Shown: in pieces, positions 6,775 to 63,696 of the stretch
How the letters are laid out: each line of letters starts with the position of its first letter
Position numbering within the stretch: position 1 is the first letter of the stretch
NCBI GenBank assembly: GCA_038319835.1
Contig: JBBQDQ010000001.1
Coordinates: 19,627-83,626, forward strand
Origin: Thermoanaerobaculia bacterium
GTDB lineage: Bacteria > Acidobacteriota > Thermoanaerobaculia > UBA5066
Reading direction: 5' to 3'
DNA length: 64,000 nucleotides
Notes under the pieces: generated by a model
What the model was told of the DNA's origin: nothing
The model's database searches: none
Seen by the model: only the letters and a program-made list of their open reading frames with translations
Made by a program: the position numbers and the translations under genes

Positions 6775-9513
6775 ATGTCCCGGCGCCCCCGTATCCCGCT
6801 CCTTCTCCTCCTGGCTCTACTCGGCCCGGGTCCGCTCCTCGGCGCCCCGACGGTCTACGTTGGCACATACGTGTCGCCTGCCGACGGCGTCTTGCGCCTC
6901 TATGACGTTCGAACGCCCGCAGGGTATGACGGCGTCTCCAAAATGCCGGCCGCTCTCTTCCTGCACGGCAGAGGGGGAGGCGGGACGTCGTTTCAGACGG
7001 ATGGGTACTTCGCCGAGGCGGATGCACGCGGGTTCGTGCTCGTCTTCTGGCGGGGACGTTTCGATCCTACGATCGGAGCTCTCTCCACGCAGTACGTCGA
7101 CGGCGTGAACGGCATTCCGGACGAGACGGACGTCCTCGCGTGCCTTGCGAACGCGCTCACGTCGTTCGCGATCGATCCGGATCGCGTCCACCTCGTTGGT
7201 TTCTCGCAGGGCGGGAAGGGTGCGCTTTTGATCGGACTGAAGAACCCGGACCGCTTCGCTTCGATCGTCGACGGCGCCGGCCCGTCGGATGCCTTCGAAG
7301 GGCAGCTCTGGTCCCCGGGATTTCCCGATTACCGCGCGTCCGCGGGCGGCGATTTCGTGGGAGCGCAGGGTCCGGTGCTCGCCCGCTGGTTCGCACAGTC
7401 CCCTCGCTTCTACCTCGGCAACGCCAGGAACATCCCGCTGTACCTGGCGCACGGCACGTCGGATACCGTCGTTCCCGACTCGGTCTCGCTCTTTCCGTAC
7501 CGGAACACGCACCACATCGCCGACACGCCGGGATTCACGGACGCCCGGGGTTCCGTGGCGACTCTCTCCCAGCTCCGGCTTCAGGATTCCGGGGGTTACG
7601 TCACCCAAACCGCCTATCCGGTGGGCGTCGACCACGTGGAAGAGGTTGTGCTCGCTCCCGGACCGATCTTCGATTTCATGCTCGGCAGGGTCCGGGCGCA
7701 TCGTCCGGACAGGGTCGTGGCGACGTCTTACGATGGGGCCGACCGGAGCTACTACTGGTCGCGGCTCTCGAGAATGAACCCGCCGGACGGGACGCCTGCG
7801 GCCCTCGACGCAATCGCGGACCGTGCGGCGAACGCACTATCGATGACCGTCTCGGGAAGCCCGGACGTCGAGGTCCGCGTCGAGGACGCCGGGCTCGATC
7901 CCTCCCTGCCGCTGACGCTGCATGTCGCGGGTGGGCTCGCCCGCGTGCGCCTCACGGGAGATTTTCCGGCGGGGCTTCAGGTCCTTCGCGGCGGGATTCT
8001 CCAGAGTGAAGGCGCCTTCTACGGCCGGGCCGGCGCGGACGTCGTCTTTTCGCCCGCGGACGGCTTCCACGGGGAAGAGGTGAGAGTCGAAGCCGGGCCG
8101 CCGGGAGCGCTATCCGGGAGCGACCTTCTCGTTCCGGCGCTCGTCGACGCTCAGGGCCTTTCCGGTGCGGTCTTCAGGTCCGAGCTGACGCTGACGAACC
8201 TGTCTCCGCGGGATCTCACGGTCGAAGCGCTGCTGCTGGACGGGTCGGCCGCGACGACCTCCATCCACATGTCCTCGTTCGAAACCCTGTCGAAGTCGTC
8301 GCACGCTCTCTTCGCGTCGCTCGGCAAGCCGGGTGGAGTCGCCCCCCTCCGCCTCCGGATCGTGTCGGGGACGCCGGGCGTCCTCCTCGCGTCCGCGCGA
8401 GTCTTCAACACGGTTTCGGGCGGCGGGACGTACGGTCTGTCGTTTCCCGTCCTCTCCGCGCGTGAGTCCGTTCTGAGCGCGGGCGAAACGGTCGATCTCT
8501 TCGGGGCCTCGGACGCCCACCCGGCGCGCCTGAACGTCTCGCTCTTTGCCCCCTTCGAGGACGTGACTGCGGTTCTCGACACGTTCGACCCTCACGGCGC
8601 CCGCGCGACGAGCCGACCTCTCTCCCTCCCGGCCGGATCACGGACGCAGATGAACGACGTCCTGGCCGGCGTTCCGAATCCGGGGCGCGTTTCGCTTTCG
8701 ATCCTGACGGGACGGGCCCAGGTCTACGGAACCGCGATCTCGAATGCGTCCACGAACGATCCATTCCGAAGCCCACCGCTCGCGCGGAGCAATGTCTCGA
8801 CGGTCTGGACGGTCCCGGCCGTGGCCGCCGCTCCAGGCCGCGAGGGAGCCGTCTTCTCGAGCGACGTCTTCCTCGGCGCGCCTCCCGGCGCGCCGGATTC
8901 CGGGGTCTCGGTCGACCTCACCTTCCGATCCCGCGACGGAAGTCCTCCCGTGACCATGACGACCGCGGTCCCACGGGGAGCAACGCGGATCCTGGCGGAC
9001 GTCTTGCGCAGCGAGTTTCCGCAGTCGGTGCCGGGCGCGGGCGCGCTCGAGATTCGAAGCAGCGCGGGCGTTCAGGTTCTCGCCGTGACGCGGAGCGACT
9101 CGGACACGGGCCCCGCGTCGCAGGACGTCGCGTCGATCCGAGGGGGAGACGAGATAACCGCCGCGTCACCCTCCGCGTTTGTCGGAGTCGCCGAATTCGG
9201 GGAGGCTCGCTCGAATCTCGTCCTCGTGAACGAGGGGCCCGGCACGACCGTCGATCTCCGGATGTTGTACGAAGGGGGAGTCCTCGGAGGACACGTCACG
9301 GTCGACCTCGGTCCGGGCGAGATCAGGCAGGTCGATTCGTTCGCACGGCTCTTCGCACCGGGCTCCCGGATTCCGGTGAATTCGGCCACGCTCCTCTTGA
9401 TTCCGGCGCCGGGCGGGAGGGTCGTCGCGTCGGTCGCCCGTATCGACAACCGTACGAATGATCCAACCGGGATCAGCCCGGTTCCGATTCCGCGTGCGGC
9501 GAGCCTTCCTTAG
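6775..9513 (+). CDS. Secreted alpha/beta-hydrolase (esterase/PHB-depolymerase-like) with a large C-terminal beta-rich extension
   Basis: Signal peptide 'MSRRPRIPLLLLLALLGPGPLLGAP'; nucleophile elbow 'GFSQGG'; 'AHGTSDTVVP'. ~910 aa. Alternative GTG start at 6736. Confidence 0.65.
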   Translation: MSRRPRIPLLLLLALLGPGPLLGAPTVYVGTYVSPADGVLRLYDVRTPAGYDGVSKMPAALFLHGRGGGGTSFQTDGYFAEADARGFVLVFWRGRFDPTIGALSTQYVDGVNGIPDETDVLACLANALTSFAIDPDRVHLVGFSQGGKGALLIGLKNPDRFASIVDGAGPSDAFEGQLWSPGFPDYRASAGGDFVGAQGPVLARWFAQSPRFYLGNARNIPLYLAHGTSDTVVPDSVSLFPYRNTHHIADTPGFTDARGSVATLSQLRLQDSGGYVTQTAYPVGVDHVEEVVLAPGPIFDFMLGRVRAHRPDRVVATSYDGADRSYYWSRLSRMNPPDGTPAALDAIADRAANALSMTVSGSPDVEVRVEDAGLDPSLPLTLHVAGGLARVRLTGDFPAGLQVLRGGILQSEGAFYGRAGADVVFSPADGFHGEEVRVEAGPPGALSGSDLLVPALVDAQGLSGAVFRSELTLTNLSPRDLTVEALLLDGSAATTSIHMSSFETLSKSSHALFASLGKPGGVAPLRLRIVSGTPGVLLASARVFNTVSGGGTYGLSFPVLSARESVLSAGETVDLFGASDAHPARLNVSLFAPFEDVTAVLDTFDPHGARATSRPLSLPAGSRTQMNDVLAGVPNPGRVSLSILTGRAQVYGTAISNASTNDPFRSPPLARSNVSTVWTVPAVAAAPGREGAVFSSDVFLGAPPGAPDSGVSVDLTFRSRDGSPPVTMTTAVPRGATRILADVLRSEFPQSVPGAGALEIRSSAGVQVLAVTRSDSDTGPASQDVASIRGGDEITAASPSAFVGVAEFGEARSNLVLVNEGPGTTVDLRMLYEGGVLGGHVTVDLGPGEIRQVDSFARLFAPGSRIPVNSATLLLIPAPGGRVVASVARIDNRTNDPTGISPVPIPRAASLP

Positions 9514-55259: not shown

Positions 55260-55916
55260 CTAGGAGCGACGCGTCGCCCGGACGATGAACCGCTGGGGAG
55301 CCGAGCCGACGAAGTAGAACGGGTAGCACGTCACGAGCGTGACGGCGGGCCCGCCGGTCTCGTCGAGGACGGAGACGTCCTCGGTGTCCACGATCTTCGT
55401 CCAGGTCACGATGTAGCGCGAGGTCTCGCGCGGGGTCTCGAGAAGGATCTCGTCCCCGACGGCGACGTCCTTGAGCGCGCGGAAGAAGCCGTCGCGATGA
55501 GCGGAGAGGCAGACGTTGCCCGCCTCGCCGGGGCGCGCCGTCCCCTCGATCCAGCCCGCTCCGCGGTTGAGCGTCAGGTCGTCCGTCCCCTCGAGGACCG
55601 GGACGTCGATCTTCAGGCGCGGCATCTTCAGGAGCGCGAGCGGCGCGCGGTGGTCGGCCGCGAGGCTCTCCTTCCACTCCCTCACCCGCACGTCCGACCA
55701 GAGGGAGACATCGACCGGCCCTTCCTCGAGGCGGACGGCCGCTGTGGGCACGGCGGTGGGGGCCGGAGGCCGCCCCCGTTCGGCGGCCCTCTGCGCCTCG
55801 AAGGCCTGCCGGTCGCGGCGCGACCCGAGGATCGAATGCAGACGGGCGGCGCCCCACACTCCGAGGAGCAGGATTCCGACGCCGATCAGCGCGTTTCCGA
55901 TCCGCCGCGAGAGCAT
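55260..55916 (-). CDS. Sortase-family transpeptidase
   Basis: N-terminal TM; 'NVCLSAHRD' (His), 'TLVTCYP' (TLxTC active site) and a downstream Arg. Confidence 0.65.
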   Translation of the reverse strand: MLSRRIGNALIGVGILLLGVWGAARLHSILGSRRDRQAFEAQRAAERGRPPAPTAVPTAAVRLEEGPVDVSLWSDVRVREWKESLAADHRAPLALLKMPRLKIDVPVLEGTDDLTLNRGAGWIEGTARPGEAGNVCLSAHRDGFFRALKDVAVGDEILLETPRETSRYIVTWTKIVDTEDVSVLDETGGPAVTLVTCYPFYFVGSAPQRFIVRATRRS

Positions 55917-55990
55917 CAAACTCAAGCGTACCGTACGGCGGCGGGGCGCCCGGTTCCGAACCGCAGCATGAAATGCGAGAATTGATCTCA

Positions 55991-56404
55991 ATGAACCGGT
56001 CCACGCGGAGCCTGGCGCTTCTGTTTCTCCCGCTCGCCCTCCTGGCGGCCGACCCGCTCGAGACGCAGCTCGCGAACGCGCGCGCCCTCGTGAAGGGCGG
56101 CAAGGCGGCCGAGGCCAAGGCGCTTCTCCGGGGCACCGTGGAGTCCAATCCGAAGAGCCGCGAGGCCCGCAAGGCGCTCCTCGAGGCCGCGGCCCTCACG
56201 AAGGACTGGGAGACGTGCAACGCGCAGGGAGCCGCCCTCGAGCCGTTCCCGGATGGCGAGGAGCCGGCGATGTTCTACGCGGCGGTCGCCCTGCGGGAGA
56301 CGGGCAGCGTCGCGAGCGCCCGGGCGCTCCTCAAGCGCGCGCGGCCGCTCCTCGCGCGGAACGCCTGGGTCGACTACTACACGAAGGAAATCCTCGGGGA
56401 CTGA
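55991..56404 (+). CDS. Small secreted helical (TPR-like) protein
   Basis: Signal peptide 'MNRSTRSLALLFLPLALLAADP'; helical A/L/K-rich body. Confidence 0.4.
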   Translation: MNRSTRSLALLFLPLALLAADPLETQLANARALVKGGKAAEAKALLRGTVESNPKSREARKALLEAAALTKDWETCNAQGAALEPFPDGEEPAMFYAAVALRETGSVASARALLKRARPLLARNAWVDYYTKEILGD

Positions 56405-56419: not shown

Positions 56420-57502
56420 TCACAGCCAGAGAAACGCCATCGCGACGATCGCGTAGACGACGAGGAGCTGCGCGCCCTCGAGCCAGTTCGACTCGCCGTC
56501 CGCGGCGATCTGGCCCGCGATGAGGACCGACGCCGCGAGGACCGCGACCTCAAACGGGTTGAAGAAGAGCGTCATCTCCCTGCCGAAGAGGAGCGACACG
56601 AAGACGAGGAGCGGCGCGACGAAGAGCGCGATCTGCTGACTCGAGCCGAGGGAGATCGCGAGGGACAGCTCCATGCGGTTCTTCGCCGCGGTCGACACGG
56701 CGACGAGGTGCTCCGCGACGTTTCCGATGAGCGGGATGAGAACGATGCCGAGGAAGACTTCCGAGACGCCGGTGCGTCTCACGACGGGCTCCACGGCGCC
56801 GACGAGCAGCTCGGAGAGGACGACCGTCGCGAGGGTCGAGCCGACGAGGACGCTCACGGCCTTGCGGAGGCTCCAGGCGCCCGCGGGAGTCTCGCGATGC
56901 GTGACGCCGACCTCGGGCGCGATGCCGCGTGACGGCGTCGTGAGCGAGAAGACGAGCGAGAGGACGTAGACGAGGATCAGGACGGCCGCCACGCCGAGGG
57001 AGAGCCGGTCGAGGAGCGGGTCCGACGACTCGGTGAGGAGCGGCAGGTTCCGCTGCAGCTTGTGGACGACTTCGAAGAGCGTCGGGATCAGGAGGCCGAT
57101 GACGGAGAGCAGCATCATCGTCGAGGCCGTGCCCGCGGCGCGGGAGTCGAAGCGCTGGAGCCCGTTCTTCAGTCCGCCGACGAGGAGCGACAGCCCGAGG
57201 ATCAGAAGCAGGTTCCCGAGGATCGAGCCGATGATCGACGCCTTCACGAGCTCGACCCTGCCGGCCCGGAGCGCGACGACCGTGATGATGAGCTCGGCGG
57301 CGTTGCCGAGCGTCGCGTTCAGGAGCCCGCCGGCGCGCTCTCCGGTGCGGTGGGCGAGATGCTCGGTCGCCTCTCCCATGGCGGCCGCGAGCGGGAGGAG
57401 GCCGAGGCACGCGAAAACGAAGACGAGAGTCGGCGAATGGAGCAGCCACTCGGCGGCGAGAGCGAGCGGGACGAAGGCGAGGAAGGTGCGAAGGGCCTTC
57501 AC
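56420..57502 (-). CDS. Ca2+/H+ antiporter (CaCA/ChaA family)
   Basis: Two alpha-repeat signatures 'GNAAELIITV' and 'GNVAEHLVAV'. ~10 TM helices. Confidence 0.75.
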   Translation of the reverse strand: MKALRTFLAFVPLALAAEWLLHSPTLVFVFACLGLLPLAAAMGEATEHLAHRTGERAGGLLNATLGNAAELIITVVALRAGRVELVKASIIGSILGNLLLILGLSLLVGGLKNGLQRFDSRAAGTASTMMLLSVIGLLIPTLFEVVHKLQRNLPLLTESSDPLLDRLSLGVAAVLILVYVLSLVFSLTTPSRGIAPEVGVTHRETPAGAWSLRKAVSVLVGSTLATVVLSELLVGAVEPVVRRTGVSEVFLGIVLIPLIGNVAEHLVAVSTAAKNRMELSLAISLGSSQQIALFVAPLLVFVSLLFGREMTLFFNPFEVAVLAASVLIAGQIAADGESNWLEGAQLLVVYAIVAMAFLWL

Positions 57503-57705
57503 GCCGGCGGCGGCGCGGTTCCGAACCGGTCCTTGAAGACCTCGTAGGCGCGGCGCCGCCGCTGCGCCTCGTCGTCGGTACGCGCCGTGACGACGGCCCG
57601 GGCTTCGCGGTTCGTGGGATCCGGAGCGGTCATCCGACCCCAATTCTACGGGTGACGGATGGACAGGACGCCCGGGGACGGCTAGAACGTGCAGGGGAGA
57701 CACCT

Positions 57706-58125
57706 ATGCCGCTCGTCGATCTCGACTCGATTCCCCAGGTCCCGCTCGAATTCGTGAACGCCGACCACCGCGAGGAAGGCCGCCTCCTGAACGTGGTGGC
57801 CGAGGCGGTGGACGCGCTCGAGGCCGGGACGGGCGGCGCGCAAGCCGCGCTCGCGAGCCTCGCCGCGCTCCGCGACCACACGGCCCACCACTTCGGGCGC
57901 GAGGACGACGCGATGCGGCGGACGGGGTTCCCCGCCTTCCCCGTCCACCACGCCGAGCACGTGCGTGTGCTCACCGAGCTGGACGACGAGATCCGCCGCT
58001 TCCGCGAGACGGGAGACGCGGCGCGCCTGAGGGCCTGGGTCCTCGGCGACGTCCCGCAGTGGTTCGTGAACCACATCGAGACGATGGACCTCGTGACGGC
58101 CCGGTTCGTGGCGAGCCGGATCTAG
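57706..58125 (+). CDS. Hemerythrin-like metal-binding protein
   Basis: 'H..EE...H..H...E' pattern ('ADHREEGRL', 'DHTAHHFGREDD', 'HHAEHVRVL', 'WFVNHIETMD'). Confidence 0.6.
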   Translation: MPLVDLDSIPQVPLEFVNADHREEGRLLNVVAEAVDALEAGTGGAQAALASLAALRDHTAHHFGREDDAMRRTGFPAFPVHHAEHVRVLTELDDEIRRFRETGDAARLRAWVLGDVPQWFVNHIETMDLVTARFVASRI

Positions 58126-58201: not shown

Positions 58202-59077
58202 ATGTCGTTGTTCGTCAAGTTCAATTTGATCCTGATCCTGGTTTTCGCCGTGGCGCTCGTCCCGGCGGCCTATCTGTCGAACCAGCTGCTCCAGACGAAC
58301 GCCCGCACACAGATCGTGCAGAACGCGCGGATCATGATGCAGACGGCCCTCGCGACGCGCGGCTACACGAACAAGCAGATCAAGCCCCTCCTCGCGCCCC
58401 GGCTCGCGGAGGAGTTCCTGCCGCAGTCGGTGCCGGCGTACTCGGCAACGGAGATCTTCAACAACCTGCGCGAGAGCAATCCCGAGTACACGTACAAGGA
58501 AGCGACGCTGAACCCGACGAACCCCCGCGACCGAACGGTCGACTGGGAAGCCGACGTCGTGAACGCGTTCCGTGCGGACCCGAAGCTCACGGAAGTGATC
58601 GGCGAGCGCGAGGGGCCGCTCGGGCGCTCGCTCCACCTCGCGCGGCCGATCAAGATCACGGACGCGGGATGCCTGTCCTGCCACACGACGCCCGAGATGG
58701 CCCCGGCGTCCGTCGTGAAGTCGTACGGCTCGAACAACGGCTACGGCTGGAAGCTGAACGAGACCGTCGGCGCGCAGATCGTCACGGTCCCGATGTCGGT
58801 GCCGATCGCGATGGCGACGAAAGCCTTTCAGACGCTTCTCGCGACCCTCGTGGGGGTCTTCGTCTTCATCCTCCTCTTCCTGAACGTCCTCCTGTGGTTC
58901 GTCGTGATCCGGCCGATCCGGACCCTCTCCTCGATGGCCGACCGCGTCTCGACCGGGGACCTCGACGTCCCGGAGGTCGCCGTCCGCGGCACCGACGAGG
59001 TGGCCGTGCTCGCGGGCTCCTTCAACCGGATGCGAATCAGCCTGACGAAGGCCCTCAAGATGCTCGAGGACGAGTGA
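58202..59077 (+). CDS. Membrane protein with periplasmic heme-binding DUF3365-like domain (CxxCH) and cytoplasmic HAMP domain; no output domain
   Basis: N-terminal TM, 'CLSCH', second TM, then a HAMP-like 'IRPIRTLSSMADRVSTGDLDVPEVAVRGTDEVAVLAGSFNRM'. Ends 20 nt before the kinase gene. Confidence 0.6.
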   Translation: MSLFVKFNLILILVFAVALVPAAYLSNQLLQTNARTQIVQNARIMMQTALATRGYTNKQIKPLLAPRLAEEFLPQSVPAYSATEIFNNLRESNPEYTYKEATLNPTNPRDRTVDWEADVVNAFRADPKLTEVIGEREGPLGRSLHLARPIKITDAGCLSCHTTPEMAPASVVKSYGSNNGYGWKLNETVGAQIVTVPMSVPIAMATKAFQTLLATLVGVFVFILLFLNVLLWFVVIRPIRTLSSMADRVSTGDLDVPEVAVRGTDEVAVLAGSFNRMRISLTKALKMLEDE

Positions 59078-59096
59078 CCAGGAAGACGCGGACGCT

Positions 59097-60599
59097 GTGA
59101 CCGACGGAACCCTAGCGCCGGGAGCGCGCTTCGGAGACTACGAAATTCTCGCCGAGCTGGGCGCCGGCGGCATGGGGCGCGTGTACCGCGCGAAGGACCT
59201 CACGCTCGAGCGGACGGTCGCGCTCAAGATGCTCGCGCCCCAGTTCGGGACGGACGCGGGGTTTGTCCAGCGCTTCCTGAAGGAAGCGCGCGCCGCGGCG
59301 CGGCTGAACCACCCGAACATCGTCCAGATTTACGACTTCGGCCAGGACGGAGACACCTACTACCTCGCGATGGAGTACGTCGACGGCCATTCGCTGGGCG
59401 AGTACCTCCGGCGCGGCCACTTCAGCGAGCGCGACGCGATCCTCGTGATCCGGCACGCGTGCCGGGCGCTCGCCGTCGCGCACGCCGAGGGACTCGTCCA
59501 CCGCGACATCAAGCCCGACAACCTCATGCTCACGAGCCGTGGCGAGGTGAAGCTCGTGGACCTCGGGATCGCCAAGCGCGTGGACGAGGACCAGTCGCTC
59601 ACGCAGACGGGCCAGGCCGTCGGCACGCCGCACTACATCTCGCCCGAGCAGATCCGCGGCTCGAGGGATATCGATCCCCGCGCGGACGTCTACTCGCTCG
59701 GCGCCACGCTCTACCACCTCGTGACGGGCCACACACCGTTCCGCGGGACGTCGGGCGCGCTCGTCATGTCGCTGCACCTCTCCCAGCCGCTCGCCGATCC
59801 CCGCACGTACGTCGCGGGACTTTCGGAGGGGATCTGCCGCGTGATCCGGAAGATGATGGCGAAGGACCGCGAGGAGCGTTACGCCGACGTCGACGTGCTC
59901 GACCGCGACCTCTACCGGCTGCAGACGGGGGAGATGCCCGAGGCGGCGGAGCCCGGCGCCACCGCCGTGGAGACGATCGTGCGCGAGCGCGTGCCGTCGA
60001 AGCCCGAGGCTCCCGCGTTCGCACACACAGCGACGCCCGCGCCGCACTCCGCGTTCGACTCGAGCGTCCTGAACCGCGTCGAGGAGCTCCTCGCGTCGGA
60101 GGTCGGGCCGATGGCCCGCGTCCTCGTCCGGCGGGCGGCGAAGTCGTTGCCGTCGCTCGAGTCCCTGTGCGGGGAGCTGTCCGAGCAGATCGGAGCCGGG
60201 CCCGCACGCGAGGCGTTCCGCTCGAGGTGCCTCGTGGCCGGCCGATCGGCGACCCCGCCGCCGGCGCCTGCTCCGCCCGCGACGCCTCCTCCTCCGTATG
60301 GCTCGAGCGCGCCGCGCACGACACCCCCGCCGCTGGAGAGACGACCGACGCCGGCGCCCGCCCACCGGACGCCCGGCGCCTCGCTCGGCGGAGGCAACTC
60401 CGTGTACGTGAGCGACCCGGACCTTCACGCCCTCGAAGCCGAGCTCGCGCGCCACGTGGGCCCGCTCGCCCGCATCCTCGTGAAGAAGGCCGCGAAGAGC
60501 GCGGGCTCTCTGGCCCAGCTCGTCGCGGCGCTCGAAGGCGAGATCCCGTCGGACGACGCGCGCCGCGCCTTCCGGACGGCGGTCAGGAAGCTCCGGTAG
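59097..60599 (+). CDS. Ser/Thr protein kinase with two C-terminal ~55-aa repeats
   Basis: GTG start. 'LGAGGMGRVYRAKD', 'HRDIKPDNL', 'DLGIAK', 'SPEQIRG'. Repeats 'LxxxVGPxARxLVxxAAKSxxSLxxLxxxL...ARxAFR'. Confidence 0.85.
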   Translation: MTDGTLAPGARFGDYEILAELGAGGMGRVYRAKDLTLERTVALKMLAPQFGTDAGFVQRFLKEARAAARLNHPNIVQIYDFGQDGDTYYLAMEYVDGHSLGEYLRRGHFSERDAILVIRHACRALAVAHAEGLVHRDIKPDNLMLTSRGEVKLVDLGIAKRVDEDQSLTQTGQAVGTPHYISPEQIRGSRDIDPRADVYSLGATLYHLVTGHTPFRGTSGALVMSLHLSQPLADPRTYVAGLSEGICRVIRKMMAKDREERYADVDVLDRDLYRLQTGEMPEAAEPGATAVETIVRERVPSKPEAPAFAHTATPAPHSAFDSSVLNRVEELLASEVGPMARVLVRRAAKSLPSLESLCGELSEQIGAGPAREAFRSRCLVAGRSATPPPAPAPPATPPPPYGSSAPRTTPPPLERRPTPAPAHRTPGASLGGGNSVYVSDPDLHALEAELARHVGPLARILVKKAAKSAGSLAQLVAALEGEIPSDDARRAFRTAVRKLR

Positions 60600-61092: not shown

Positions 61093-63696
61093 TCATTTTG
61101 CACCCGTCGTGCCCGGCGTCGACAGGGCCTTCTCGAAGAGGGGATCGGGCCGGAGCTCGGCGAGGTCCGGGTCCGCCCGGAGGAGGAACGGGCTGAACCC
61201 GTGCCGGACGCAGTCCCCGACGAGCGCGAGAGCGGTCGGCCGGTCGTGCCGTCTGAGGGCAGCGTGCGCGGCCTCGAGGAGGACGTTCGGGTCGTCCGGA
61301 GCCGCCGCCCGGGCGGCGACGATCGCTTCGCGTGCCCTGGCGTCCTCGCCGAGGAGCGAGAGCGCCTGCGCCCGGTTGCGCAGAGCCGGGATGCTCCGCG
61401 GGTTGACCTGCAGCTCGTCTTCGGCGCGGCGGAGGGCCTCCGTGTACGCGCCGCGCACGCGCTGGGCGTCGCCGTTCGACCAGCGCAGGGCATCGCCGAG
61501 GTTGATCCAGGGCGTCGAGCGCTTCGGTGCGGCGGCGGCGGCCTTCTCGAACGCGGCCGCGGCGTCCGCGTAGCGGCCCGAGTAGTAGTACGCCGTCCCG
61601 AGGTTCGAGAAACCGCTCGAGCTCTGCTGGAGGTCGAGGGACTTCTGGGCGACCTTGACGGCGTCCTCGAGGCGCCCGGTCTGCAGGTACGCTCCGCACA
61701 GGTTCGAGAGCGGCCGGGGGCTCGTCGGGTTCAGGCGCGCGGCCTCCTCGTACGCGGTGATCGCGCGCGCGTAGTCGCCTCTGACGAAGAGAAGCGCGCC
61801 GATGCGGTTCTGGGGCGCCCAGTACGCGGCGCGCGCTGCGGCGGCCCGCCGGTACGCGGTCTCGGCGTCCGCGGTCTTCCCGGAGTCCGCGAGGGCGTCG
61901 CCGAGGTAGAGGAGGGCCTCGACGGAACCGGGATCCCGCCCAAGGGCGCGCCGGAAGTCTTCCGCCGCTTCGTCGAAGCGTCCGGACGCCGCCTTGATGC
62001 GGCCGAGCGTGAGGACCGTCTCGAAGCGCGCGGGGTCGAGCGTCTGCGCGCTCTCGGCGCTCGCGCGTGCGAGGGACACGAACGCGCTGTCGTGTGTGTT
62101 CTGGTACGCCGCGAGGTACGCGCGGCCGAGCGCGGCCTGCACGATCGCGGAGGCGTCGCCGCCCGGGATCGCCTTGAGGATCTCGATCGCGCGCGTGACG
62201 GACGCGGGGTCGTCATACCGCTCGAGGTAGCCAAGCGCGACGACGTAGTCCGTCTGCGGGGCGCCCGCGGGGAGGGACGCGGGCGCCGCTGCGGCACCCT
62301 TCGCGAGCTGGATCTTCAGGGCCGCGACGAGCTTCTGTGTGAGTTCGTCCTCGAGCCGGAAGTGCTCGGCCGCTGGCCCGGACACCTCGCCGGCCGCGAT
62401 CTGTATGGGCGAGCCCGCGAGGGAGATCGAGAACGAAAGCTGGCGCGTTTCGCCCATCTGGCGGACGGCGGGCTGGACGAGGAGGTTCGCGCCGGTGTCG
62501 CGCGTCCACTTCGAAGGGTCGGTCTCCTTGAGCATCGCGGCGCTCGAGGGCCGCGTGATCGCGAGGTTCGGGACGCCCTGGAGCTTCACGCCGAGGCTAA
62601 AGGACACGCCGTCGCAGAGCTGCCGCCCGTCGGGCCGCCCGGTAAGGTCGGTTGCGGGGAGGATCGCGAGGAGCTTGGAGGCCGGCAGGGCCTTTCCGGC
62701 GCGCTCGTGGACGGCGAACCAGAGGAGCGCCGCGCCGACGACGAGGAGGACGGCTCCCGCGGCGAGGAGGGCGCGTCCGCCGCCGCGGCGGGCCATGGAT
62801 CCCGAGCGGCCGGAGGCCGGAAAGATCGCCGTCGTGCGCGAGCCGGCGGCGGCCTCGAGGAACCCGCGCGTGTCCGACACGGCCGCGGGGCGCCCGGCGG
62901 GGTCCTTCTGGAGAAGGCGCTTGATGAGGTCGCGCAGCGGCGCGGGCGTCGTGGCGGGTAGCGCGGCCCAGTCAGGCTCGCGGTCGAGGATCGCGACGAG
63001 GATGTCCGAGACGCTCTCGCCGTCGAACGCCTTCTTGCCCGCGAGCATCTCGTAGAGGAGGCAGCCGAACGACCAGAGGTCCGAGCGACCGTCGAGCGTG
63101 CGGCCGCGCGCCTGCTCGGGGCTCATGTAGCTCGCCGTGCCGAGGACGACGCCCTGGTGCGTCGGATCGGCGGCGATCGTGGGCGAGTGGGAGATCTCCG
63201 GGGAGGCCGCGCCGAGCGCGAAGGCTTTGGCGAGGCCGAAGTCGAGGAGCTTGACCTTGCCTTCCGGAGTCACGTTGACGTTTGCGGGCTTGAGGTCGCG
63301 GTGCAGGACGCCCCGGGTGTGCGCGGCCTCGAGCGCGTCTGCGATCTGGAGCGCGAAGCGGATCGCCTCGTGCACGGAGACGGGCGCGCGCACGATGCGC
63401 TGCTTGAGCGTCTCGCCGGAGACGAGCTCGAGGACGAGGAAGCGGAGGCCGTCGACCTCCTCGAAGCTGTAGATCGCGGCGATGTTCGGGTGGTTCAGGG
63501 ACGCGAGGACGTGGGCCTCGCGCGTGAAGCGCACGAGGCGGTCGGGATCTGCGGAGAAGGCCTCGGGGAGAACCTTGATCGCGACGTCGCGCTGGAGGCG
63601 TGTGTCCCGGGCTCGCCAGACTTCGCCCATGCCTCCCGCGCCGAGGCGCGAGAGGACCTCGAACGGCCCGAGACGGGAACCGGGTTCGAGAGGCAT
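61093..63696 (-). CDS. Ser/Thr protein kinase with TM and TPR repeats (paralog of 48426..51023)
   Basis: Near-identical kinase core ('LGAGGMGEVWRARDTRL', 'HRDLKPANV', 'DFGLAKAF'). 867 aa. Confidence 0.85.
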   Translation of the reverse strand: MPLEPGSRLGPFEVLSRLGAGGMGEVWRARDTRLQRDVAIKVLPEAFSADPDRLVRFTREAHVLASLNHPNIAAIYSFEEVDGLRFLVLELVSGETLKQRIVRAPVSVHEAIRFALQIADALEAAHTRGVLHRDLKPANVNVTPEGKVKLLDFGLAKAFALGAASPEISHSPTIAADPTHQGVVLGTASYMSPEQARGRTLDGRSDLWSFGCLLYEMLAGKKAFDGESVSDILVAILDREPDWAALPATTPAPLRDLIKRLLQKDPAGRPAAVSDTRGFLEAAAGSRTTAIFPASGRSGSMARRGGGRALLAAGAVLLVVGAALLWFAVHERAGKALPASKLLAILPATDLTGRPDGRQLCDGVSFSLGVKLQGVPNLAITRPSSAAMLKETDPSKWTRDTGANLLVQPAVRQMGETRQLSFSISLAGSPIQIAAGEVSGPAAEHFRLEDELTQKLVAALKIQLAKGAAAAPASLPAGAPQTDYVVALGYLERYDDPASVTRAIEILKAIPGGDASAIVQAALGRAYLAAYQNTHDSAFVSLARASAESAQTLDPARFETVLTLGRIKAASGRFDEAAEDFRRALGRDPGSVEALLYLGDALADSGKTADAETAYRRAAAARAAYWAPQNRIGALLFVRGDYARAITAYEEAARLNPTSPRPLSNLCGAYLQTGRLEDAVKVAQKSLDLQQSSSGFSNLGTAYYYSGRYADAAAAFEKAAAAAPKRSTPWINLGDALRWSNGDAQRVRGAYTEALRRAEDELQVNPRSIPALRNRAQALSLLGEDARAREAIVAARAAAPDDPNVLLEAAHAALRRHDRPTALALVGDCVRHGFSPFLLRADPDLAELRPDPLFEKALSTPGTTGAK

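Follow-up and report, generated by a model that had tools for sequence, protein, structure and literature searches.

The window analysed here is a stretch of 64,000 nucleotides (nt) from a Thermoanaerobaculia bacterium (contig JBBQDQ010000001.1), in which two adjacent forward-strand genes occupy positions 58202 to 60599. The first encodes a membrane receptor with a predicted periplasmic c-type heme domain and a HAMP domain at its C-terminus; the second encodes a soluble Hanks-type Ser/Thr kinase that ends in two small repeats. We propose that the two genes form one operon encoding a split transmembrane heme sensor of the Cache_heme-HAMP (CHH) receptor/Ser/Thr kinase type, a reading to which we assign a probability of about 0.8. 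The features of the pair are as follows, with TM1 and TM2 denoting the transmembrane segments and aa amino acids.

58202..59077, forward: CHH receptor gene, ATG at 58202, TGA at 59075-59077, 291 aa; TM1, heme-c Cache domain, TM2, HAMP, stop
58214..58273, forward: TM1 of the receptor, about residues 5-24 (Kyte-Doolittle, 19-residue window, peak 2.56)
58295..58792, forward: sCache_heme or Tll0287-like (DUF3365) domain, residues 32-197 (Pfam PF11845, E 3.6e-40)
58670..58684, forward: putative c-type heme motif CLSCH (C157, C160, H161), read from the sequence
58838..58909, forward: TM2 of the receptor, about residues 213-236 (Kyte-Doolittle peak 2.92), followed by R237 and R240
58904..59074, forward: predicted cytoplasmic HAMP domain (Pfam residues 235-281, helix to the C-terminus at 291; PF00672, E 9e-13)
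59078..59096, forward: intergenic spacer of 19 nt, with a Shine-Dalgarno-like AGGAAG at 59080-59085, 11 nt ahead of the GTG
59097..60599, forward: soluble Hanks-type Ser/Thr kinase gene, GTG start, 500 aa, with two C-terminal putative docking repeats
59139..59888, forward: kinase catalytic domain, residues 15-264 (PF00069, E 4e-55), with VALK K44, HRD D137 and DLG D155
60060..60245, forward: repeat 1 (DUF8082/STAC-like), about residues 322-383, recognition motif VGPMARVLVRRAAK at 60102..60143, residue 336
60246..60413, forward: disordered Pro-rich linker between the repeats (predicted local distance difference test, pLDDT, about 44-64)
60414..60593, forward: repeat 2 (DUF8082/STAC-like four-helix module), about residues 440-499, motif VGPLARILVKKAAK at 60456..60497, residue 454

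Receptor and kinase proteins

An earlier note on this DNA had described the 58202..59077 product as a transmembrane segment, a periplasmic domain with the motif CLSCH, a second transmembrane segment, HAMP and a stop, and both Pfam and hydropathy bear out that order; the two domains for which it advised a search, DUF3365 and HAMP, were both matched at the E values given above. CLSCH is the single CxxCH of the receptor, its two cysteines are the only ones in the protein, and the motif is invariant in 81 of 81 aligned receptors. The best hydrophobic 19-residue windows lie at residues 2-20 and 218-236, with K6 on the N-terminal side of the first and R237 and R240 after the second. Because CLSCH stands between two transmembrane segments that carry basic residues on their cytoplasmic sides, the predicted topology puts the heme motif in the periplasm and HAMP in the cytoplasm. 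The same note had held that a CxxCH lying in a cytoplasmic segment would undo its proposal; hydropathy predicts otherwise, placing the motif between the two membrane segments.

The receptor ends 10 residues past the Pfam HAMP match, with no domain after HAMP. Neither Pfam nor NCBIfam detects a fused output C-terminal to HAMP, and the protein is therefore not a classical fused HAMP sensor. NCBIfam matches to histidine kinases and to chemoreceptors (methyl-accepting chemotaxis proteins, MCPs) cover the TM2-HAMP stretch only and score far under their cut-offs. Within HAMP, residues S250, G252, S273 and S280 are invariant across 81 sequences, and T251 is also present. No record identical to the window receptor was found in the contig index.

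The kinase has the full set of expected motifs, namely VALK, HRDIKPDN, DLG, SPE and a PknB-like TQT in the activation loop, the metal-binding triplet being DLG rather than DFG, and it is predicted from these to be catalytically intact. It has no hydrophobic segment (hydropathy maximum 1.1) and no transmembrane segment. The best NCBIfam match of its catalytic domain is to the PknB/Stk1 PASTA kinases (NF033483; 336 bits, residues 15-305), with which it has the TQT in common. However, the score lies under the cut-off of 450, and, unlike those kinases, the window kinase has neither a transmembrane segment nor PASTA domains, sensing being placed on a separate polypeptide.

The two C-terminal repeats that the earlier note had pointed out are real. 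They measure about 60 aa each, are 39% identical to each other, and each matches a profile of orthologous repeats with an E value of about 1e-23 to 1e-25. An AlphaFold2 model of kinase residues 305-500 shows two compact helical modules with pLDDT above 90, joined by a disordered linker of about 55 residues. Both repeats are centred on the motif [V]GP[ML]AR[VI]LV, whose G, P and A do not vary in either repeat of 22 aligned homologues; in the shorter form [VIL]GPxA, the same three residues are invariant across 42 aligned repeats. Precomputed Pfam annotation places DUF8082 (PF26309) on the repeat of a Pseudomonas kinase and on that of an acidobacterial orthologue, and all 32 database homologues of the C-terminal region of the window kinase carry DUF8082. 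Our own Pfam scan of the C-terminal 190 residues gave no significant match, with a library that apparently lacks PF26309. Matches of the repeats to Spc19, DUF982 and ParB_C were dismissed as chance, and the PF26309-annotated Pseudomonas kinase was likewise unmatched with the same library. That the repeats exist has thus held up, whereas their description as being of unknown function gives way to an identification as putative HAMP-docking modules of the CHH system, annotated as DUF8082 in homologues.

Inheritance of the split gene pair

The kinase gene lies directly downstream of the receptor gene, as had been noted, across a gap that measures 19 nt and not 20. A scan for promoters and terminators found no promoter; terminator-like sites occurred at chance level, none of them in the 19-nt spacer. 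So short a gap, together with the rarity of terminal HAMP domains, might suggest that a frameshift has split what is really one fused heme-HAMP-kinase sensor, and there is one distant protein, P0209, in which a Cache_heme domain is joined directly to a kinase domain, although it lacks HAMP. A frameshift at 59077-59097 had been set beforehand as a refuting test.

Searched against 5.8 billion proteins, the receptor has more than 7,500 homologues. Among the best 120, whose lengths were examined (75-95% identical), 116 are 291 aa long, one has 292 aa and the remaining three have truncated N-termini; representatives of receptor clusters at 50% identity are mostly about 290 aa as well. A scan of one genome per species yielded 80 receptor loci (numbered below with the prefix L) from Thermoanaerobaculia, Vicinamibacteria, other Acidobacteriota, Krumholzibacteriota, one Verrucomicrobiia metagenome-assembled genome (MAG) and Betaproteobacteria, the last including the cultured Parazoarcus communis and Viridibacterium curvum (L070 and L080). 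Wherever the end of the receptor lies on the contig, in 79 loci, a stop codon closes its reading frame at 290-291 aa. In 77 of the 80, the next gene is an orthologous kinase; the other three have at most 176 bp of downstream DNA. The distance from receptor stop to kinase has a median of 16 nt, and in the three closest relatives (L001-L003) the kinase match starts at the receptor stop codon itself (6873 versus a stop at 6874-6876). The kinase lies in frame 0, 1 or 2 relative to the receptor in 22, 43 and 12 loci, respectively, and since this frame differs among genomes, no single insertion or deletion could fuse the genes. No fused receptor-kinase version occurs among the 80 loci, and the homologous Pseudomonas proteins have been purified as separate polypeptides (10.64898/2026.05.25.727664). 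The gap at 59077-59097 thus holds no frameshift, and we regard a single fused sensor as having next to no probability.

The separate receptor and kinase are, moreover, inherited as a unit across several phyla. Receptor identity across phyla is 55-96%, which is unusually high, and the orthologous kinases are 29-92% identical in the catalytic domain. An orphan receptor could in principle have come to lie by chance beside one of the many acidobacterial Ser/Thr kinases, the region being kinase-rich, with an unrelated Ser/Thr kinase gene only 0.5 kb away. However, in 77 of 77 informative genomes from several phyla the gene after the receptor is an orthologue of this one kinase with its C-terminal repeats, and in the window and at the 80 loci the repeats are present in the CHH-linked kinase only. 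Fortuitous adjacency is therefore extremely improbable. In two MAGs the CHH-linked kinase is interrupted, by a frameshift in L051 (6878..7739) and by a premature stop at 265 aa in L037 (5176..5971); these may be assembly errors or decaying genes.

Several other genes surround the pair. Upstream, a hemerythrin-domain gene (57652..58125, forward; PF01814, E 8e-11; NCBIfam, 57.6 bits) stops 76 nt short of the receptor gene and could be co-transcribed with it at this locus. As a conserved third component it was rejected: such a neighbour was found in L001-L006 only, at a variable distance of about 80 nt to 1.3 kb from the receptor. Downstream, a second Ser/Thr kinase of 867 aa, consisting of a kinase domain and a TPR array (61093..63696, reverse), is convergent with the CHH-linked kinase at a distance of 0.5 kb. 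Its orthologue holds the same position in many Thermoanaerobaculia loci (e.g., L001-L005, L009, L011, L012, L016, L017, L020 and L082) and in none outside that group. It was rejected as a partner of the receptor, being conserved within Thermoanaerobaculia only and lacking the DUF8082 docking repeats. The space between these kinases contains a small open reading frame (ORF; 60611 to about 61140, reverse), separated by 11 nt from the stop codon of the CHH-linked kinase. Read from an internal Met (MNETRRRP...), it has no Pfam match and carries a lipoprotein-like signal (...LSALAGAC...). Weakly conserved counterparts occur in several related loci, among them a 144-aa gene in L082. Farther upstream are a CaCA-type Na+/Ca2+ exchanger (56420..57703, reverse), a small TPR protein (55973..56404, forward) and a sortase-domain protein (55260..55991, reverse); these genes have no relation to the receptor/kinase finding.

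Relation to the Pseudomonas CHH system

The earlier note had reasoned that a stand-alone heme-HAMP receptor feeds a separate Ser/Thr kinase. That idea finds support in a homologous pair from Pseudomonas azotoformans, a CHH receptor and the adjacent Ser/Thr kinase, for which biochemistry and cryo-electron microscopy (cryo-EM) were described by Deshpande, Xu, Dunleavy, Zhulin and Crane on 28 May 2026 (bioRxiv 10.64898/2026.05.25.727664). The P. azotoformans kinase binds its receptor at nanomolar affinity, independently of ATP and of the ligand state (10.64898/2026.05.25.727664). At 3.5 A, cryo-EM shows one kinase per receptor dimer, its two C-terminal bundles clamping the HAMP dimer so that a conserved helix of each (IGPLARFLVRKSLN and IGPIARIVVSRALR) lies beneath AS1 of one protomer, and docking of the kinase orders an otherwise flexible HAMP (10.64898/2026.05.25.727664). 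Nitric oxide (NO) on the periplasmic ferrous heme raises or speeds phosphorylation of Thr256 in HAMP (10.64898/2026.05.25.727664).

The window pair resembles this system. The receptor order (transmembrane segment, heme-c Cache domain, transmembrane segment, terminal HAMP) is the same, as is the operon partner, a soluble PknB-like kinase with a linker and two small helical modules that bear a recognition motif. The window receptor is 36% identical end to end to the Pseudomonas CHH receptor P0225 (WP_403129958; E 3e-76). The window kinase is 35% identical, repeat included, to the kinase downstream of P0225 (E 9e-63), which is itself 62% identical to the P. azotoformans catalytic domain of the preprint supplement; against that catalytic domain as printed there, the window kinase shows 43% identity. 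The motifs VGPMARVLVRRAAK and VGPLARILVKKAAK of the window repeats sit where the published interface motifs IGPLARFLVRKSLN and IGPIARIVVSRALR stand. Judged by these comparisons, the window encodes a member of the CHH/Ser/Thr protein kinase family characterised in 2026 and not a new kind of system. It differs from the preprint's examples in its host, which belongs to the Acidobacteriota (Thermoanaerobaculia) instead of the gamma- and betaproteobacteria to which the reported distribution extends (10.64898/2026.05.25.727664), and in the Pro-rich linker between the repeats, of about 55 aa versus about 30 in the published kinase.

By homology, the receptor would be a dimer with heme c attached covalently to C157 and C160, with H161 as the proximal ligand and with a labile distal site, the last being consistent with the absence of a third cysteine. 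One kinase would be held permanently on the HAMP four-helix bundle, as in P. azotoformans, and each of its C-terminal modules would contact one HAMP protomer beneath AS1. A diatomic ligand on the ferrous heme, NO in the homologue that has been studied, would change the conformation of HAMP across the membrane, and as a result the tethered catalytic domain would phosphorylate the HAMP connector faster. Other substrates are presumably phosphorylated too.

Several points weigh against carrying the published mechanism over to this locus. First, heme attachment, ligand, docking and phosphorylation would all be taken from a homologue that is about 36% identical. Second, the HAMP connector of the window receptor (residues 253-263, D253-G263) contains no Ser or Thr, and the published phospho-acceptor Thr256, which stands at the start of the connector, is not demonstrably conserved. 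Candidate acceptors close by are S250, invariant in 81 receptors, T251, found in 62% of orthologues, and T264, which is variable. In P0225, the Pseudomonas receptor used for comparison in place of that of P. azotoformans (WP_033902098), residue 256 is a proline and a Thr stands at 259 in the connector. The phospho-acceptor is the weakest link of the proposed mechanism. Third, the model of repeat 1 merges helices 1 and 2, giving three helices and no obvious four-helix bundle. Finally, no PP2C phosphatase was found among the ORFs scanned between 54 and 64 kb of the window, whereas one is present in some published proteobacterial CHH clusters (10.64898/2026.05.25.727664). There is none in L081 or L082 either, and because PP2C is rarer than the kinase in the published systems, it is optional and does not define the family.

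The DUF3365/Tll0287 family has been redefined: its members are Cache domains into which a CXXCH helix derived from cytochromes is inserted ("sCache_heme"), and they are split into stand-alone, Cys/His-ligated proteins of redox type and a signalling type that binds NO tightly but not O2 (10.64898/2026.02.01.703092). Half of all Cache_heme proteins are stand-alone and are probably redox proteins. Tll0287 (PDB 5B82), a stand-alone member of "cluster 1," shares with the window receptor the Pfam family PF11845 and the CxxCH on the inserted helix. However, cluster 1 proteins are soluble and single-domain, with Cys/His ligation and a probable redox role, whereas the window receptor has two transmembrane segments and HAMP. 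Because it lacks a third cysteine, the Cys/His ligation of the redox-type proteins is impossible, and by its sequence features the window sensor fits the ligand-binding "cluster 2."

A signal other than NO could nevertheless act through the same two-protein architecture, such as the redox potential of the periplasm, oxidation driven by O2, or another small ligand (CO, sulfide or nitrite-derived species). The preprint itself leaves room for a different heme ligand as the real signal (10.64898/2026.05.25.727664). Related Geobacter c-heme sensors are thought to be redox sensors (10.64898/2026.05.25.727664), the window receptor is only about 36% identical to a Pseudomonas CHH receptor, and hemerythrins, one of which is encoded 76 nt upstream, are an O2-, NO- or iron-binding family. 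On the other side, in the one system tested, P. azotoformans, the effect of NO was much larger than that of oxidation or reduction, and the kinetics of NO dissociation resemble those of known NO sensors. The absence of a distal cysteine matches the NO-binding class, and the hemerythrin neighbour is confined to the closest relatives. We consider a signal other than NO unlikely, though a serious contender.

Less probable still, and in our estimate improbable, is that the receptor conveys no signal across the membrane and serves as an anchor, a scaffold or a mere substrate of a constitutive kinase, its heme domain having a separate periplasmic job. The constancy of binding in the homologue, whatever the ATP or ligand state, would fit such a role, as would the redox function presumed for the stand-alone half of the Cache_heme proteins, and the authors think direct modulation of the flexibly tethered catalytic domain unlikely (10.64898/2026.05.25.727664). 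But HAMP domains are signal converters, and that of the window receptor is strongly conserved, with the four invariant residues given above. In relatives, a sensor domain 40-54% identical to this one is linked by a transmembrane segment and HAMP to histidine kinases and to a SpoIIE phosphatase, and in the P. azotoformans homologue periplasmic NO altered cytoplasmic phosphorylation. These points favor signalling across the membrane.

It is useful to contrast such a sensor with other heme-based systems. H-NOX and NosP proteins reside in the cytoplasm, bind heme b and act on histidine kinases or c-di-GMP enzymes. Like the window pair, they join a heme gas sensor and a kinase that are separate polypeptides encoded together (10.64898/2026.05.25.727664, introduction); the window system differs in its predicted periplasmic c-type heme and in an output that would be a Hanks-type kinase docked on HAMP. 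Other Cache_heme sensors, whether of the TM-HAMP-GAF-HisKA-HATPase, hybrid histidine kinase or SpoIIE type or heme-c MCPs of the Geobacter GSU0582/GSU0935 type, have their output in the same chain, whereas the window receptor has no fused output and would recruit one noncovalently. Four relatives with sensor domains 40-54% identical to that of the window illustrate the range of fused outputs: P0133, P0134, P0229 and P0215 between them carry a hybrid histidine kinase, HAMP-GAF-histidine kinase, SpoIIE with HATPase_c_2, and TPR with pentapeptide repeats. Since the sensor domains of these relatives are fused to such different partners, the same input domain feeds many output types.

Putative docking repeats and possibly exchangeable outputs

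The putative docking modules may have a precedent in Archaea. Af1502 of Archaeoglobus fulgidus is the founding stand-alone STAC domain, a four-helix bundle whose first two helices are joined by an LGPx(x)A motif; its gene is translationally coupled to that of Af1503, a receptor with HAMP as its sole cytosolic part (PMC4834066). Another STAC domain, that of CbrA, docks under an SLC5 transporter. In a Foldseek search of PDB copies that did not contain the cryo-EM entries cited in the CHH preprint, the best fold match of the modelled repeats was Af1502 (5A1Q), with a probability of 0.93-0.94, a target-normalised TM-score of 0.54-0.59 and an E value of about 1; the root-mean-square deviation was 3.2-3.4 A over 63-64 columns. 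By sequence, too, the best PDB match of a profile of the 42 repeats was Af1502 (E 0.058, 17 bits, 23 residues), and neither of these two scores reaches significance; the profile segment LAaaIGPlArvLVkkaa and the Af1502 segment LKKEIGPIAKIFLNKAM align with the motif in register, at the same positions. The second-best PDB sequence match of the window HAMP was the HAMP of Af1503 (E 7e-5).

Several STAC properties are found in the window repeats: a four-helix module (in repeat 2, whose model has four helices with GP at the break between helix 1 and helix 2), GPxA at that same break, and coupling to a HAMP-only receptor, whose gene always adjoins that of the repeats. As in the window, an output-less TM-HAMP receptor in the Af1503/Af1502 system stands beside a small helical module with a GPxA motif. 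The systems also differ: Af1502 is a free protein of 68 aa without an enzyme, the Af1503 sensor is not a heme Cache domain, and the window repeats are fused to a kinase. Binding of Af1502 to Af1503 is not among the results in the text of PMC4834066 that was consulted. The main text of the CHH preprint mentions none of Af1503, Af1502, STAC or DUF8082 (10.64898/2026.05.25.727664), and the link is our own: the docking modules would be STAC-like domains, as found alongside the output-less archaeal receptor. We rate homology of the DUF8082 repeats to Af1502, and hence their identity as STAC domains, at about even odds, probable but short of established.

The kinases themselves vary in how many modules they carry. 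Of the 74 orthologous kinases that are complete, 49 contain two recognition motifs and 23 a single one (L021-L024, L028, L030, L032-L036, L039, L040, L042-L047, L060, L068, L069 and L078); two more kinases are truncated. The single-repeat kinases, of which 22 of 23 are acidobacterial and 378-428 aa long, differ from the dyad repeat described in the CHH preprint. The exception, the betaproteobacterial kinase of L078 (490 aa, one motif), may carry a degenerate second copy. A single repeat is likewise found in a Pseudomonas sp. kinase (L081, 6884..7987, 367 aa). Where each kinase brings just one repeat, two kinases could sit on one receptor dimer, a different stoichiometry.

The modules are also found outside kinases. 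On three metagenomic contigs, a third gene that follows receptor and kinase (L083, 4940..5968; L084, 4021..5049; L085, 2751..3779) codes for P0353, a protein of 342 aa that matches Guanylate_cyc (E 1.6e-7) and has one DUF8082 repeat; a TPR protein comes next. This cyclase-like protein suggests that the docking module is portable, and it may represent a second output, in competition for the same HAMP. Whether STAC is a general, portable module that docks outputs on output-less HAMP receptors, with kinases carrying one or two copies, the cyclase-like protein of L083-L085 and Af1502 on Af1503 as its instances, seems to us an even question.

A different arrangement is seen in the single metagenomic representative P0209 (588 aa), in which a Cache_heme domain and a transmembrane segment are followed by a low-complexity linker and a protein kinase domain, with neither HAMP nor DUF8082. 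This Rosetta-stone-like fusion supports the link between heme sensor and Ser/Thr kinase, although, as a single representative, it could be an artefact.

The system is thus broader than its first description. Beyond the published gamma- and betaproteobacteria, it is also present in Acidobacteriota, Krumholzibacteriota and other phyla, being no less conserved in the first two, and HAMP-terminal receptors of about 290 aa occur in Alphaproteobacteria and Planctomycetota as well. Three look-ups of 30 cluster representatives yielded Zoogloea, Janthinobacterium, Trinickia, Rhodospirillales, Acetobacteraceae, Isosphaeraceae and one Pseudomonas sp. other than P. azotoformans, which was not among them.

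Overall, the window pair indicates that a HAMP domain can end a receptor and pass its signal to a separately encoded, docked Ser/Thr kinase, which would link periplasmic heme-based gas or redox sensing to Hanks-type phosphorylation. The principle has already been published for Pseudomonas. What our analysis adds is its scope, as a module conserved as a unit in Acidobacteriota of soil and sediment and in other non-proteobacterial phyla, together with the variants in repeat number and output and the probable STAC connection. The last of these bears on a question left by the 2015 work on Af1502, namely what the output-less Af1503 signals to. If the connection is true, Af1503, the archetypal "orphan" HAMP receptor, would gain a testable partner interface, and split receptors whose outputs can be exchanged would form a broad class reaching well beyond the Proteobacteria.

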